The notes under the pieces are model-generated. The model was not told where the DNA came from. It saw only the letters and a list, made by a program, of their open reading frames with translations, and ran no database searches. Position numbers and translations under genes: made by a program. Positions 40,422-53,254 of a DNA stretch of 64,000 bases are shown in pieces. How positions within the stretch are numbered: position 1 is the first letter of the stretch; each line of letters starts with the position of its first letter. The DNA is taken from the NCBI GenBank assembly GCA_021414115.1, contig JAIOPD010000106.1, forward strand, positions 24,147 to 88,146, read 5' to 3'. This stretch comes from Planctomycetia bacterium. GTDB lineage: Bacteria > Planctomycetota > Planctomycetia > Pirellulales > UBA1268.

Positions 40422-41456
40422 ATGGCAACCGCATCGGCGTCCCCTTCCGCGACCGACCTCACGGCCGACGACGTGGCCGCTCTCGACCGGCTCCGCAGCG
40501 TCTACGGGCGGCTGAGGCAGGAACTGGCCAGGGTGATCATCGGCCAGGAGGAGACGATCGAGCGGCTGACGATCTGCCTGTTTGCACGGGGCCATGCCCT
40601 CTTGATGGGCGTGCCGGGGCTCGCGAAGACGCTCCTGGTCAGCAAGCTCGCGGAAACCGTCTCGCTGAACTTCAGCCGCATCCAGTTCACCCCCGACTTG
40701 ATGCCGATGGACATCACCGGCACCGACATCCTCCAGGAGACGGCCGACGGCCGCCGCGAGTTCCACTTCGTCCCCGGTCCCGTGTTCGCGAACATCGTCC
40801 TCGCCGACGAGATCAACCGCGCGCCCCCCCAGACGCAGGCGGCGATGCTCGAGGCGATGCAGGAGCACAAGGTGACGGTGGTCGGCAAGACTTCGCGGCT
40901 CGATCCGCCGTTCTTCGTGCTGGCGACGCAGAACCCCGTGGAGCAGGAGGGCACCTACCCGCTGCCCGAGGCCCAGCTCGACCGGTTCATGTTTCTGGTC
41001 GAGCTCGACTATCCCAGCGAGGAGGAGGAGGTGGCGATCGCGCGGACGACCACGGGCGAGGCCCCGCCGTCACTCGACCACGTGATGACGGCCGCCGAGA
41101 TCATCGACTACCAGCAGCTGGTCCGTCGCGTGCCCGTGCCCGACCACATCTACCGCTTCGCCGCCAAGCTCGTGCGGAAGACGCGGCCGCGGGGCGAGTC
41201 GGCACCGGCCTGGCTCAAACCGCTCGTCTCCTGGGGTGCCGGTCCGCGGGCCGTGCAGAACCTGGTGCTCGGCGCCAAGTCGCGGGCCGCGCTGTTGGGC
41301 AGCTACATGGTCCGCCTCGAGGACGTCGAAGCGGTGGCGGCGCCGGTGCTCACCCACCGGCTGATCACCACGTTCGCCGCGCAGGCCGAGGGGATCGACG
41401 CCAAGCAGATCGTCGGCCGACTCGTGAAGGAGACCGTCGAGGAGCAGGCGGGCTGA
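40422..41456 (+). CDS. MoxR-family AAA+ ATPase
   Basis: Trimmed to ATG at 40422 (MATASASPSATDL...). Walker A GVPGLAKT, Walker B VLADEINRAPPQTQAAMLEAMQE, then ATQNPVEQEGTYPLPEAQLDRF. Confidence 0.95.
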   Translation: MATASASPSATDLTADDVAALDRLRSVYGRLRQELARVIIGQEETIERLTICLFARGHALLMGVPGLAKTLLVSKLAETVSLNFSRIQFTPDLMPMDITGTDILQETADGRREFHFVPGPVFANIVLADEINRAPPQTQAAMLEAMQEHKVTVVGKTSRLDPPFFVLATQNPVEQEGTYPLPEAQLDRFMFLVELDYPSEEEEVAIARTTTGEAPPSLDHVMTAAEIIDYQQLVRRVPVPDHIYRFAAKLVRKTRPRGESAPAWLKPLVSWGAGPRAVQNLVLGAKSRAALLGSYMVRLEDVEAVAAPVLTHRLITTFAAQAEGIDAKQIVGRLVKETVEEQAG

Positions 41457-41514
41457 CACGCGTGGAGCGAGCCCGCGATGATCGTGGTCACCTTTTTACT
41501 TTTCCCTGAGCCGC

Positions 41515-42426
41515 ATGTTGACCGACCGACAGCCGCGATCGTTTCTCGACCCGCAGGTGCTCGCGAGGCTCTCCGCGGTGCCGTTGCTGGCCCGCCGCCC
41601 GATGGTGGGCAGCGTGTCGGGGCGGCATGCGAGCCCGCACCGCGGCTCGAGCGTCGAGTTTGCGGAATACCGCAAGTACGTGCCGGGTGACGATCTCCGG
41701 CGGCTCGACTGGCGGGCATTCGGCCGGTCCGACCGCCACTACGTCAAGGAATACGAGGCCGACACCAACCTGCGGCTGTGTCTCGTCCTCGACACCTCGG
41801 GCTCGATGAACTTCGGCCCGGGCGCGATGACGAAGATCGACTTCGCGCGGCGGATCTGCGGGGCGCTGTCGTACCTCGCCTCCCAGCAGGGGGACGCGGT
41901 CGGCATTTCGTGCGTCGCCGACGGCATCGTGCGGACGCTCCCTCCGCGGCGCAGCCCGGCACACCTCAGGCTCGTGTTCGACCTGCTCGACGAGGTGCGG
42001 CCCGCGGGACCGACGCGGCTCCCCGAGGTGCTCCATGAGTTCGCCGAGACCATCCGGCAGCGGGCCGTGGTCGTGATCGTCTCCGACTTGTTCGCCGATC
42101 CGGCGGCGCTGGCGTCGGCGTTCAGCCACTTGCGGTTTCGCCGGCACGATGTCGCCGCCTTCCACCTGCTCGATCCGCAGGAGATCGCGTTTCAGTTTCA
42201 ACGGCCGACCCGGTTTCTCGACATGGAGGGGGGCGCGGCGATTTTCGCCGACCCGATCGACATCTCCGACCGCTATCACAGGGCGGTGGAGGCCTACCTC
42301 GCCGACATGAAGAAGATCGTGCTGGAATCGGCCGTCGACTATCACCGCGTCCTCACCGACGAGCCCTATGAGCAGGCGGTGGCCCGGTTTCTGGTGGGCC
42401 GCGCGGCCGGGAGGGGTCTGCGATGA
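41515..42426 (+). CDS. DUF58 domain protein (vWA-like, MoxR partner)
   Basis: GRHASPHRGSSVEFAEYRKYVPGDDLRRLDWRAFGRSDRHYVKEYE and the MIDAS-like LVLDTSGSM. Confidence 0.9.
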   Translation: MLTDRQPRSFLDPQVLARLSAVPLLARRPMVGSVSGRHASPHRGSSVEFAEYRKYVPGDDLRRLDWRAFGRSDRHYVKEYEADTNLRLCLVLDTSGSMNFGPGAMTKIDFARRICGALSYLASQQGDAVGISCVADGIVRTLPPRRSPAHLRLVFDLLDEVRPAGPTRLPEVLHEFAETIRQRAVVVIVSDLFADPAALASAFSHLRFRRHDVAAFHLLDPQEIAFQFQRPTRFLDMEGGAAIFADPIDISDRYHRAVEAYLADMKKIVLESAVDYHRVLTDEPYEQAVARFLVGRAAGRGLR

Positions 42427-51222: not shown

Positions 51223-52259
51223 ACACGAATTCATGGCGGACGCTGGCGGCGGCAGGGTGGATGCATCGAGCGGCTGGCGGCCTGCTCGCGGCGTGGTGCC
51301 TGGTCGCCGGGGTCGTCCAGATCCAGGTTGCCGGCGACGAGGTCGAAGAAGCCGTTGACGATGGCCAAGGGGCGGATCCCGAGGCCGTCGTGGAGATCGA
51401 CGAGTTGGTGGAGATCGTGGACGACGTTCCAATTGCCCCGCCGGTCGCGCCGGCACAGCCGCTGGGCGGGCTGTTTGGCGCCGGGCTGCGGGCGATTTTC
51501 GACGCTGTCGCGCCCGAGCCGCAGGTGGCAGAGCAACCCCTCCCGCTCGACGCGGCCGACGATGGAGAGATGCCGAAGGATCCTCGGGCTGCCCAGCTCT
51601 GGCAGCAGCGCAAGCAGATCCGTGAGCAGGCGAAGCACATGGAGCAGGCGCTTCAGCCAGCATTGCGGACAGAACTGGAGATGGTCCGACGGAGTTGCGG
51701 CAGCCTCTCCCCGGAGGCCCGCCGCGAGGTGCTCACCGCAGGCAAAACGGCGGTCGCCAGTACGGCCCTGAATGTCGCGACGCGGCAGATGCGGGGCGGC
51801 CCCGGACGACGGTCCTTCGATGTGCGGCGGGAGATCCAGGAGTCGCTTGCCAAGGCAGTCGAGCCGCATGCCCCCGCCGCCGAGTTTGCGGCGTACCAGC
51901 GGGAACAGCAGCTGCGGTGGGAGCGGCGGCAGCGGGCGGCCCGCGTGGCCATCGTCGCGAAGCTCGACCGGAGGCTCGATCTTGCCGACGCACAGCGGCG
52001 GGCCATCGAGGCCGACCTCGAGCAGCATTGGGAGGCGTCGTGGGTGCGCGGACTCGACGATCATCGGGTCGTCATGAACAACGAACGGCCCGCCCCCGAT
52101 TACGCCGAGCGATGCATCGCGCCTCACCTTGACGAAAACCAGCGGGCCGAATGGCGGCGCTGGCGGAAGGCGGCCGGCTCGGCCGTCATGGGGATGCACG
52201 TGGGTTGGAACCTCGACGGGCAGGGGCTGCATCAGGAGGACGACTGGTGGACGAAGTGA
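51219..52259 (+). CDS. secreted hypothetical protein (acidic N-terminal region, Arg/Glu-rich helical body)
   Basis: Trimmed to ATG at 51219 (ATGA overlap). Signal-like LLAAWCLVAGVVQIQVAG. No family recognised. Confidence 0.45.
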   Translation: MNTNSWRTLAAAGWMHRAAGGLLAAWCLVAGVVQIQVAGDEVEEAVDDGQGADPEAVVEIDELVEIVDDVPIAPPVAPAQPLGGLFGAGLRAIFDAVAPEPQVAEQPLPLDAADDGEMPKDPRAAQLWQQRKQIREQAKHMEQALQPALRTELEMVRRSCGSLSPEARREVLTAGKTAVASTALNVATRQMRGGPGRRSFDVRREIQESLAKAVEPHAPAAEFAAYQREQQLRWERRQRAARVAIVAKLDRRLDLADAQRRAIEADLEQHWEASWVRGLDDHRVVMNNERPAPDYAERCIAPHLDENQRAEWRRWRKAAGSAVMGMHVGWNLDGQGLHQEDDWWTK

Positions 52260-53254
52260 CACGCACCGCCGCGTCCGTGTGTCGTGGAGCGGCGGTCATC
52301 GTGGCCGTCGCGGTCACCGTCTGCTGGACGGCCGCCAGCCGCGCCGAGGACGACCGCGTGGTCGAGGAGCCGCTGGCATCGCAGCCGTCGGCCGAGCAAC
52401 AGCTCGTCGATCTGGGGGCCAACTTCGACGCCAATCTCTTCGAGCAGCAGGGCAACGGCTGGGTCCTGCGGGGCGACAACGGCGGGCAGATGTTTGGCCG
52501 GGTACGGGTGATGGCGAACGGCCGGCAGATCGCGCCGGCTGCAGCCGCAGGGGATGAGCCGCGTCCCCCGGAATCGCCCACGTTCGCCCGGGCGCGGGCC
52601 ATCGCGGAGAAGCATCTGGCGCGGATCGACGAGGCGTGCGAACTCGACGACCTGCAGCGGCGGAAGCTTCGGCTGGCGATCGAGTCGGACATCCGGCGGT
52701 TTGCCGAGGATGTCGATCTCATTCGCCGGCGGTATGCCGGGGTCCGCGTCAACTTCAATGATCAGCAGGGACAGAAGCAGTGGCAGCAGTTCCAGCAGGA
52801 CGTGCAACAGTGCCGGCAGCGGCTGCGGGGGCTCTACGATACGGGGTCGCTGTTCGCGAAGGCGCTGCCCACGACGCTCGACGAACGTCAGCTCGCGGGC
52901 ATCGAGCGTGAGGCCAGTGCGCGGCGGTCGTTTCGCTGGCGGGATATGGTCGTGTCGGCGCTCGTGAAGATGGACGAGACGCTCGGCCTCGATCAGGCGC
53001 AGCACGACCTGCTCGAGGAGATCCTGATCGCCCGCGAGCCGGCACTGCGGGTGGACGAGTTGGGGCCACAGCAGGAAAACGATCACGTGCGGCAGATGCT
53101 CGTGGCGATGATCCTGTCCGAGGGCGACACCGACCGCATCAAGGCCGCGGTCAGCGAGCGGCAGTGGCGGACGCTCTCGCTGCTGATGAACCAGGGCAAG
53201 GCGATGCGGTCGTGGATCGAGCAGCAGGGCGTTCTCGAGGCACCACGGCCATGA
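52247..53254 (+). CDS. secreted hypothetical protein (helical, Gln/Arg-rich)
   Basis: GTG at 52247 (or 52256) overlaps the upstream gene by 13 nt. Signal-like AAVIVAVAVTVCWTAASRAED. No family recognised. Confidence 0.45.
   Translation: MDEVTRTAASVCRGAAVIVAVAVTVCWTAASRAEDDRVVEEPLASQPSAEQQLVDLGANFDANLFEQQGNGWVLRGDNGGQMFGRVRVMANGRQIAPAAAAGDEPRPPESPTFARARAIAEKHLARIDEACELDDLQRRKLRLAIESDIRRFAEDVDLIRRRYAGVRVNFNDQQGQKQWQQFQQDVQQCRQRLRGLYDTGSLFAKALPTTLDERQLAGIEREASARRSFRWRDMVVSALVKMDETLGLDQAQHDLLEEILIAREPALRVDELGPQQENDHVRQMLVAMILSEGDTDRIKAAVSERQWRTLSLLMNQGKAMRSWIEQQGVLEAPRP

Follow-up and report, generated by a model that had tools for sequence, protein, structure and literature searches.

A MoxR-DUF58-BatA_N operon of Planctomycetia extended by conserved membrane and secreted proteins, and the envelope complex that it may encode

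Introduction

The MoxR-DUF58-BatA module is present in many phyla, and links have been made between it and aerotolerance, resistance to stress, virulence and the integrity of the envelope; to our knowledge, its mechanism has been without explanation since 1999. One copy of this module lies in a 64,000-nucleotide (nt) stretch of DNA from a Planctomycetia bacterium (assembly GCA_021414115.1, contig JAIOPD010000106.1, positions 24,147 to 88,146; below referred to as the window), which has a G+C content of ~69%. At positions 40422-53254 of the window the module is followed by genes for a giant membrane protein, a toroid protein and two secreted helical proteins, which raises the question of whether these genes belong to the same functional unit and what kind of structure such a unit would encode. 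The analysis presented here revealed that the full set of genes is co-conserved across Planctomycetia and in one Verrucomicrobiota contig. We consider it probable, though well short of certain, that one operon encodes an inner-membrane/periplasmic complex with a cytoplasmic AAA+ motor, and that this complex is an elaboration, within the Planctomycetes-Verrucomicrobia-Chlamydiae (PVC) group, of a MoxR-DUF58-BatA_N-GATase1-like module of the type represented by RL3499-RL3502 of Rhizobium leguminosarum, itself related to the Bacteroides aerotolerance (Bat) operon. A literature search, with incomplete full-text coverage, found no paper describing the extended operon.

Organization of the operon

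Open reading frame (ORF) calling and inspection of the translations identified eight ORFs in the region 40422-53254, all co-directional on the + strand and designated G1 to G8. The first-pass annotation of this DNA had announced nine genes; eight is also the number that agrees with the seven junctions that it listed. The genes are as follows (aa, amino acids; locations of the products are predictions):

40422..41456, + strand: G1, MoxR-type AAA+ ATPase, 344 aa, cytoplasmic
41515..42426, + strand: G2, DUF58 protein, soluble VWA-like putative adaptor with a DxSxS motif, 303 aa
42423..44438, + strand: G3, doubly anchored membrane protein, 671 aa
44435..46642, + strand: G4, doubly anchored membrane protein, 735 aa
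46709..50119, + strand: G5, large membrane protein, 1136 aa
50119..51222, + strand: G6, secreted (alpha/alpha)6 toroid, 367 aa
51219..52259, + strand: G7, secreted helical protein, paralogue of G8, 346 aa
52247..53254, + strand: G8, secreted helical protein, paralogue of G7, 335 aa

A 58-nt gap separates G1 from G2, 4-nt overlaps join G2 to G3 and G3 to G4, a 66-nt gap lies between G4 and G5, and the last three junctions are overlaps of 1, 4 and 13 nt; all these lengths had been given exactly in the first-pass annotation. Nearly all related loci share the 4-nt ATGA overlaps of the G2/G3 and G3/G4 junctions. The G7 start (ATG 51219) creates a 4-nt overlap with G6 that is found in relatives too, and the 13-nt overlap between G7 and G8 is also present in the closest relative (locus L068); G8 starts with GTG 52247, and AGGAGG is placed ~8 nt upstream of this codon. 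The G1 start was assigned to ATG 40422, which fits the lengths of the orthologues (338-354 aa), whereas TTG 40191 does not. A scan for consensus terminators detected none that was convincing inside the operon, the sole candidate being a weak 6-bp stem in the G1-G2 gap, and found no terminator-like site in the G4-G5 gap. The overlapping stop and start codons, together with the lack of a convincing internal terminator, are compatible with transcription of the operon as one unit.

Conservation across Planctomycetes and in a Verrucomicrobiota contig

Loci containing a G5 homologue were collected from species-representative genomes, and the best 80 of 252 confirmed loci were inspected in searches with all window proteins. 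The order G1-G2-G3-G4-G5 was colinear in 54 of the 56 loci with at least 7 kb of sequence upstream of G5. G6 was found downstream of G5 in every locus with at least 7 kb on that side (50/50), and a relative of G7/G8 was detectable in 45 of these 50. According to the record titles, the loci come from Pirellulales, Planctomycetaceae, Isosphaeraceae (Singulisphaera), Gemmataceae, Thermoguttaceae, Adhaeretor, Bythopirellula and Rhodopirellula. Several loci with proteins 45-88% identical to those of the window operon belong to bins titled "Candidatus Kuenenia" (L002, L004, L010, L052, L065), and one (L029) to a bin titled "Deltaproteobacteria"; errors of binning or naming seem to lie behind these titles, and taxonomic assignments based on titles should be treated with caution.

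The order of the genes downstream of G5 is G5-G6-G7-G8 in the clade of the window and mostly G5-G7-G8-G6-thioredoxin protein elsewhere, sometimes with extra paralogues; in Singulisphaera, four ORFs of the size of G7/G8 separate G5 from G6. The Verrucomicrobiota contig (L084, with a protein assigned to Prosthecobacter sp. in NCBI/UniRef) encodes, in this order, MoxR, DUF58, a BatA_N protein, G4, G5, a 780-aa protein, G6 and a 1107-aa thioredoxin-domain protein. Identities to the window proteins are 72% for G1, 56% for G2, 38% for G3, 53% for G4, 38% for G5 and 46% for G6, and the 780-aa protein holds a module of the G7/G8 type (hhalign probability 96.7). Two insertions were found in this contig: a 23S_rRNA_IVP-family gene between moxR and the DUF58 gene (L084:2587-3045) and a UPF0175/DUF3368 toxin-antitoxin-like pair between the G4 and G5 orthologues (L084:9200-9927), suggesting that small selfish elements are tolerated within the operon. 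In a further lineage, MoxR-DUF58-BatA-G4-G5-G6 is accompanied by a relative of the N-terminal portion of the thioredoxin-domain giant. Since the set is shared by both phyla, it is either older than their divergence or the result of an early exchange between Planctomycetota and Verrucomicrobiota.

These data bear directly on the simplest alternative, namely that the downstream genes are mere neighbours of the MoxR core, retained beside it by shared ancestry as a separate unit with no functional coupling. In favour of this view, G4 and G5 are separated by 66 nt, the spacing on one or other side of G5 grows to hundreds of bases in some relatives, the Verrucomicrobiota contig has a toxin-antitoxin pair inserted at the G4/G5 junction, and the Rhizobium operon stops at gene 4. 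However, the colinearity described above (54/56 and 50/50 testable loci) persists at G5 identities down to 38-45%, all genes lie on one strand with at least four of the seven window junctions overlapping, the G4-G5 gap lacks a terminator-like site, and the sequences flanking the operon on both sides are conserved in the closest relatives only. We therefore regard independence of the downstream genes as very improbable. The co-conservation of these genes with the MoxR/DUF58 core, on which the first-pass annotation had staked its proposal, was borne out by both counts and by the Verrucomicrobiota contig.

The cytoplasmic pair and the three MIDAS motifs

G1 has the features of a classical MRP-type MoxR AAA+ protein: Pfam matches to AAA_3 (3.3e-62) and AAA_lid_2 (1e-11), a Walker A (GVPGLAKT), a Walker B (LADEINR) and a sensor motif (ATQNP), all three read from the sequence, and a DUF58 gene that begins 58 nt downstream. 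Its median identity among related loci is 78%. G2 matches the Pfam families DUF58 (5.4e-44) and VWA_2 (8e-7); membrane-helix prediction yielded no convincing helix, suggesting that G2 is a soluble protein.

Three consecutive products contain a DxSxS motif typical of a metal-ion-dependent adhesion site (MIDAS): LVLDTSGSM in G2 (D93), VVLDRSPSM in G3 (D98) and VLWDASRSM in G4 (D83). In G2, D93, S95 and S97 are conserved in 58/58 orthologues, while the aspartate and both serines are retained in 56-57 of 58 orthologues of G3 and in 63-64 of 65 orthologues of G4, well above chance. Reading of the sequences also revealed, ~85-100 residues after each of the three motifs, the VWA signature of a hydrophobic strand followed by [ST]-D. 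The conservation of the DxSxS residues and the presence of this downstream signature indicate that the MIDAS motifs are real and under selection. Of the three MIDAS-motif membrane proteins proposed in the first-pass annotation, all have kept their motif, and G3 and G4 their membrane location; the DUF58 protein was wrongly placed among membrane proteins.

A MoxR protein accompanied by VWA proteins also forms the core of the "ternary" conflict systems of Kaur et al. 2020, common among Planctomycetes (PMC7159879), and the operon could in principle be an anti-phage system of that kind, the more so as G1 gives a secondary Pfam match to bpMoxR (3e-11). The best match of G1, however, is the classical AAA_3 (3e-62). 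PADLOC returned no match for any of the eight proteins, Pfam searches revealed no VMAP, iSTAND, FtsH or effector domains, and the colinear, vertical conservation with uniform constraint is unlike that of variable defence islands. A defence function thus appears hardly credible.

The membrane proteins G3 and G4

G3 opens with two membrane helices (BatA_N, residues 6-24 and 56-74) and closes with a third (634-652); a VWA-like domain and then beta-rich and GATase1-like regions lie in between. The BatA_N assignment, which the first-pass annotation had put forward for checking with profile models, was confirmed by matches to BatA (Pfam, 1.1e-18) and TIGR02226 (NCBIfam, 7.7e-21). G3 aligns over its full length with a protein of Gemmatirosa (hhalign probability 99.7, E 8e-26, 623 columns) that itself scores with BatA, VWA_2 (7e-10) and GATase1_like; the VWA assignment of G3 is based on this homologue. 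A comparison of G3 with the sequences of solved structures gave no match.

G4 has two N-terminal membrane helices, a VWA domain, a GATase1-like domain, filamin-type immunoglobulin (Ig) domains and a C-terminal anchor; the prediction that two of the products are double-anchored therefore proved correct. The G4 orthologue profile gave weak, domain-level matches to the VWA structures 4cn8 (1.6e-4), 4rck and 4hql, and also matched the GATase1-like structure 2gk3 (0.007) and filamin Ig domains. With Pfam GATase1_like, G4 scores 23.3 bits, below the cut-off of 27, so that the DUF1355-like domain suspected in the first-pass annotation is seen at the level of remote homology or fold and not as a family-model match. 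G4 is the most constrained membrane component of the operon (mean column identity 68%). Its invariant positions include DxSxS, SDGDWN and most of residues 519-549 (MATDGAWRWRKGVEDKYHYRFWGQVVRWMAY), and in the orthologue alignment the region around TDGAWRWRKGVEDKYHYRFWGQVVRWMAY is nearly all invariant. Two cysteines, C336 and C387, are invariant as well and are predicted to be periplasmic. Despite the identical layout of G3 and G4, a paralogous relationship between them, considered as a candidate, was not significant (hhalign probability 6%, E 0.006).

The giant membrane protein G5

An AlphaFold2 model of G5, built from 74 sequences, had a mean predicted local distance difference test (pLDDT) score of 82.4. 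At the N-terminus, three membrane helices surround a conserved loop of ~70 aa that is predicted to be cytoplasmic. These are followed in the model by tandem beta-sandwich domains (~205-510, with strands at 212-510) and long helices (512-633). A disordered spacer rich in Pro, Gly, Glu and Lys (639-749) leads to a helical bundle (760-1060), after which come a Gly-rich disordered tail (1064-1116) and a terminal helix. The long helices and the two disordered stretches correspond to the coiled-coil and low-complexity regions noted in the first-pass annotation. Foldseek found only generic matches to tandem Ig/macroglobulin-type domains, with a whole-chain template modelling (TM) score of ~0.1.

No Pfam or NCBIfam match, including DUF4175/TIGR02302, was obtained even at E<=10 for G5 and 22 other members of its family (13 members plus 10 more diverged ones were scanned). 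Likewise, comparison with the sequences of solved structures gave no useful match, and comparison with plasmid records no match. The family is nevertheless large: a 13-member profile retrieved 7017 representatives of 50%-identity clusters at E<=1e-3 and 931 at E<=1e-30. A diverged member (P0386) retrieves a protein, P0457, that carries PF13779 (DUF4175, 2.1e-9, above threshold), and the G5 profile aligns with this PF13779-positive protein over 591 columns (hhalign probability 99.5, E 1e-22). Judged by these profile alignments, G5 is a remote relative of DUF4175, linked to it via one bridging protein; the DUF4175 assignment for which the first-pass annotation had suggested a search thus failed as a direct match and held as remote homology.

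The toroid protein G6

The AlphaFold2 model of G6 (pLDDT 84, predicted TM score 0.83) shows 12 core helices arranged in a single-domain (alpha/alpha)6 toroid, preceded by a signal-peptide-like N-terminus. G6 is strongly conserved: its median identity within Planctomycetia is 57%, and the Verrucomicrobiota orthologue is still 46-48% identical (E 6e-81). Five of its orthologues (P0121, P0133, P0140, P0150 and P0172), which are secreted single-domain toroids of 350-390 aa, are named "squalene--hopene cyclase" by NCBI.

If this name were correct, G6 would be a genuine class II terpene cyclase and the operon would modify or handle polyprenyl or hopanoid lipids of the envelope. The top Foldseek matches are indeed single-domain class II cyclases (8paj and MstE, 6sbb) and squalene-hopene cyclase (1sqc), with E values of 2e-6 to 1e-5 and TM scores of 0.54-0.66, there are weak similarities to SQHop_cyclase_C and TIGR01787, and the conservation of G6, with many invariant aromatic and polar residues, is enzyme-like. 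The fold is matched equally well, however, by non-cyclases, namely a GH76 mannanase, AprG and the C3/C5 complement thioester domain (overall TM 0.5-0.66). The family models score below threshold (TIGR01787, 23.2 bits against a cut-off of 322.7; DUF6288, 24.2 bits against 26.3). Furthermore, squalene-hopene cyclases are two-domain proteins of ~630 aa, and G6 is a single domain of 367 aa with no DxDD acid motif. DADTS (192-196) was considered as the acid motif of a class II cyclase and rejected, because its D-x-[ST]-[ST] cap is repeated in other hairpins (HDSMY, SDAVTS, TVDTSL) and is generic for prenyltransferase-type repeats. A single toroid with a signal-peptide-like N-terminus is, moreover, predicted to reside in the periplasm, apart from the cytoplasmic isoprenoid precursors. 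The single domain, the N-terminus, the TIGR01787 score and the repeated nature of the DADTS cap together argue that G6 is no squalene-hopene cyclase; a role as a terpene cyclase of any class II kind is very unlikely, and the NCBI name is very probably an over-annotation. The terpene-cyclase fold, the prenyltransferase-type repeats and the predicted secretion of this protein, all given in the first-pass annotation, were upheld at least at the level of fold or remote homology.

The combination of beta-sandwiches in G5 with a toroid in G6 was also considered as a split alpha-2-macroglobulin. This candidate was rejected: the Foldseek matches are generic, and G6 lacks the CGEQ thioester motif.

The secreted paralogues G7 and G8

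Both G7 and G8 are helical proteins with signal-peptide-like N-termini, and neither has a Pfam, NCBIfam or PDB match. The first-pass annotation had accordingly described them as proteins of no recognisable family, and had overlooked that they are related to each other. The pairwise BLAST match between them is weak (E 0.017), and their orthologue profiles align over 176 columns (hhalign probability 98.7, E 1.5e-16), which identifies them as paralogues in a new family. A single conserved cysteine occupies an equivalent position in the two proteins (C160 in G7, C131 in G8), each being present in at least 90% of the orthologues.

A recurring L-x-L-x-x-x-Q-R pattern suggested chaperones of the Spy/CpxP type (LTxxQ). 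This assignment was rejected, as no such Pfam match was obtained at E<=1 with ten members.

A thioredoxin-domain gene at the end of the operon

A ninth gene, often joined to G6 by overlapping codons, lies directly behind it in most Planctomycetia loci and encodes a secreted protein of ~960-1040 aa, for example:

L050:16324-19215: thioredoxin-domain giant in a relative of the window

The C-terminus of this protein contains a Redoxin/AhpC-TSA/thioredoxin domain with a WCGPC motif, fused to a beta-rich N-terminal region of ~800 aa. No homologue of it was found anywhere in the 64-kb window, in which just 126 nt (53255-53380) separate G8 from an inositol-phosphate synthase gene. At the same position in the closest relative there is a 461-aa ORF (L068:16516-17901) that matches PDZ and, in tblastn, a portion of the thioredoxin-domain giant. 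Since most relatives have the ninth gene and L068 retains a partial ORF, the loss in the lineage of the window seems to be recent. The ancestral conserved operon included the thioredoxin-domain gene, which has been lost from the window.

The co-conservation of this TlpA-like protein and of periplasmic cysteines in G4, G7 and G8 ties the operon to the earlier proposal that Bat proteins are concerned with periplasmic reducing power (PMC3557215), and a thiol-redox link of the complex is possible. Taken further, the original Bat hypothesis would make periplasmic redox maintenance the primary function, with the TlpA-like protein as the catalytic end and the MoxR/VWA proteins as a scaffold or regulator. 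Such a function would account for the WCGPC protein that closes the operon of most Planctomycetia and that of the Verrucomicrobiota contig, as well as for the conserved cysteines, and would agree with the phenotype of a B. fragilis bat mutant, which is partially rescued by reducing agents (PMC3557215), and with the altered survival of Riemerella batA and moxR mutants under oxidative stress (PMC11834572). On the other hand, a thioredoxin gene is missing from the operon in the window and in several close relatives, where all other genes are still strongly constrained, the four-gene Rhizobium version has none either, the operon encodes no membrane electron conduit resembling DsbD/CcdA, and Leptospira bat mutants are not oxidant-sensitive (PMC3557215). 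We consider redox maintenance unlikely to be the primary function.

A model of the encoded complex

The reading that we prefer is the AAA+-driven envelope complex outlined in the Introduction. Its topology was derived from the positive-inside rule, from the signal-peptide-like N-termini and from the BatA-like Borrelia protein BB0173, whose VWA domain was located in the periplasm by experiment (PMC5700661). MoxR and DUF58 would be cytoplasmic. In G3 and G4, the VWA and GATase1-like domains (in G4 also the Ig domains) would be held on the periplasmic side by a membrane anchor at either end, and G5 would extend its beta-sandwiches, coiled coil and TonB/TolA-like Pro/Gly-rich spacer into the same compartment, in which G6, G7 and G8 are also predicted to reside. 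Apart from the conserved ~70-aa loop of G5, these three proteins would then expose just short loops and tails to the cytoplasm.

By analogy with other MoxR systems, we propose that (i) a MoxR hexamer, with DUF58 as MIDAS adaptor, may grip G3, G4 and G5 by their loops or tails on the cytoplasmic side, and (ii) ATP hydrolysis may drive assembly or remodelling of the periplasmic complex. In the periplasm, (iii) the MIDAS sites of G3 and G4 could bind partners (G5, G6, G7/G8) through metal-bridged acidic residues, (iv) G5 could span the compartment in the manner of TonB/TolA and (v) G6 could supply a ligand-binding cavity, the whole complex supporting envelope integrity. In most lineages the complex would be served by a dedicated TlpA-like thiol reductase, the likely clients of which are the periplasmic cysteines of G4, G7 and G8. 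The MoxR-chaperoned envelope assembly suggested in the first-pass annotation is, in these terms, a reasonable inference.

Several observations weigh against this model. With MoxR and DUF58 in the cytoplasm and the VWA domains of G3 and G4 predicted on the periplasmic side, the motor cannot touch the MIDAS sites of these domains directly; the coupling route through cytoplasmic loops and tails is a guess, and we infer the physical interactions, the topology and the dependence on MoxR. The gene order downstream of G5 is permuted from clade to clade, no relative of G7/G8 was detected in 5 of the 50 loci, and the lack of a thioredoxin gene in the window means that the redox link is not obligatory in this operon. 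A literature search of incomplete coverage found no experiment on any PVC member of the operon. Finally, deletion of the bat genes of Leptospira caused no morphology, growth or oxidative-stress phenotype (PMC3557215), so the role of the module may be subtle or dependent on the lineage.

A bolder version of the model, which we offer tentatively and ourselves think rather unlikely, is that the nine-component set forms a machine of an undescribed kind, trans-periplasmic, powered by ATP and inherited from the ancestor of Planctomycetota and Verrucomicrobiota, in which the toroid binds an envelope lipid or glycan and the thiol reductase controls the assembly state. If true, this would be a PVC-specific organiser of the envelope and a first mechanistic foothold on the Bat/RL3499 class. 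Even without this step, the PVC version provides a long-unexplained and widespread module with a larger set of defined partners: a DUF4175-like giant family that has no Pfam model, a mislabelled toroid, a new family of helical paralogues and, in most cases, a TlpA-like protein. These partners allow testable hypotheses to be framed on interactions, topology and thiol-redox clients, and two carriers of the operon, Adhaeretor and Singulisphaera, are cultured and fully sequenced. The conservation pattern also lends independent genomic support to the old idea that Bat-type systems handle periplasmic reducing power.

Regions flanking the operon

The operon is preceded by the following region:

40015..40421, + strand: 407-nt non-coding leader/promoter region, 5' of the MoxR gene

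No ORF supported by orthologue lengths was found in this leader, and it gave no match to an Rfam family; its folding z-score (-2.1) is unremarkable. Within the segment 40033-40170, G+C-rich arms (~40034-40055 and ~40145-40170) can pair to form a long hairpin just 3' of the stop codon of the upstream gene. The genes at 36723-40014, which encode a methyltransferase, a GT4 glycosyltransferase and a 345-aa ORF without a Pfam match, are joined by 4-nt overlaps and look like a separate small operon; they adjoin moxR only in the closest relatives (L002-L004, L011, L068).

On the other side, the region 53381-58101 contains genes for myo-inositol-1-phosphate synthase (+ strand), an 815-aa TolC-like outer-membrane efflux protein (- strand) and an ApbE flavin transferase (- strand), the TolC-like gene being located directly 3' of G8 in several relatives from the clade of the window. 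As the flanks on both sides are conserved in the closest relatives only, the boundaries of the operon were placed at G1 and G8. The sole Rfam/ARAGORN match in the window is a tRNA-Gly (GCC) at 22201-22273 on the minus strand.

Comparison with known systems

A MoxR AAA+ protein with a MIDAS-bearing VWA partner is likewise found in NorQ/NorD, CbbQ/CbbO, RavA/ViaA and CoxD/CoxE. Such pairs provide the working model of a client complex remodelled at the expense of ATP (PMC9976466, PMC3893208). Pairs of the NorQ/NorD type approach their enzymes, soluble or membrane-bound, from the cytoplasm, whereas the operon analysed here encodes two additional VWA domains predicted to be periplasmic and has no evident enzyme client. 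The ninth gene product shares with TlpA/ResA-type oxidoreductases the Redoxin/AhpC-TSA domain and the WCGPC motif. G5 has in common with DUF4175 (PF13779)/TIGR02302 proteins a start composed of a membrane helix, a cytoplasmic loop and a membrane helix, followed by beta-sandwiches, the first coiled coil and low-complexity segments; the C-terminal helical bundle of G5 lies outside the DUF4175 alignment. In the one DUF4175 protein examined, no MoxR neighbour was found on its short contig.

Plasmid 1 of Gemmatirosa kalamazoonensis (L081), a megaplasmid of Gemmatimonadota, encodes a G4-like VWA protein, a 1166-aa protein with tetratricopeptide repeat (TPR) and Peptidase_MA-like domains, MoxR, DUF58 and the BatA + VWA_2 + GATase1_like protein mentioned above. 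This arrangement suggests that a different large partner (TPR/peptidase) stands in the place of G5.

The Bat operon of Bacteroides fragilis and its relatives in spirochaetes, Francisella and Riemerella share with the window a classical MRP-type MoxR, a DUF58 protein and BatA-type MIDAS/VWA proteins, and their products, too, are presumed to form a periplasmic complex; G3 shows the BatA-type arrangement, in which the double membrane helix of BatA_N is followed by a VWA domain with a MIDAS motif. The resemblance to the Bat operon pointed out in the first-pass annotation is sound in these three respects. It does not extend further: BatB, BatC/BatE (TPR, SH3) and BatD have no equivalent among the eight products (Pfam, E<=0.01), and Bat operons have not been described with a giant of the G5 type, a toroid or proteins of the G7/G8 type.

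A closer counterpart is the R. leguminosarum operon RL3499-RL3502 (pSK03, L083), described as a "broadly conserved operon", mutants of which reportedly have a defect of the envelope and of cell morphology (Vanderlinde et al. 2011, J Bacteriol 193:2684). In an insertion sequencing (INSeq) study of this species, RL3499 and RL3500 were listed as impaired for growth on TY medium (PMC5118466). Its four genes occur in the same order as G1-G4, encoding MoxR, DUF58, a BatA_N protein and a GATase1_like protein, with a 4-nt overlap between the DUF58 gene and gene 3, as in the window. The operon ends at gene 4, and no gene for G5, G6, G7/G8 or a thioredoxin adjoins it. The third gene product (937 aa, BatA_N + DUF4159) has a C-terminal DUF4159 domain (4.9e-54) for which G3 gave no match, and the hhalign match between the two proteins is weak (probability 8.4) and confined to the N-terminal ~90 residues. 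The fourth product, a 689-aa GATase1_like membrane protein, shares 22% identity with G4 over 75% of its length. Overall, RL3499-RL3502 is a better match for G1-G4 than the Bacteroides Bat operon.

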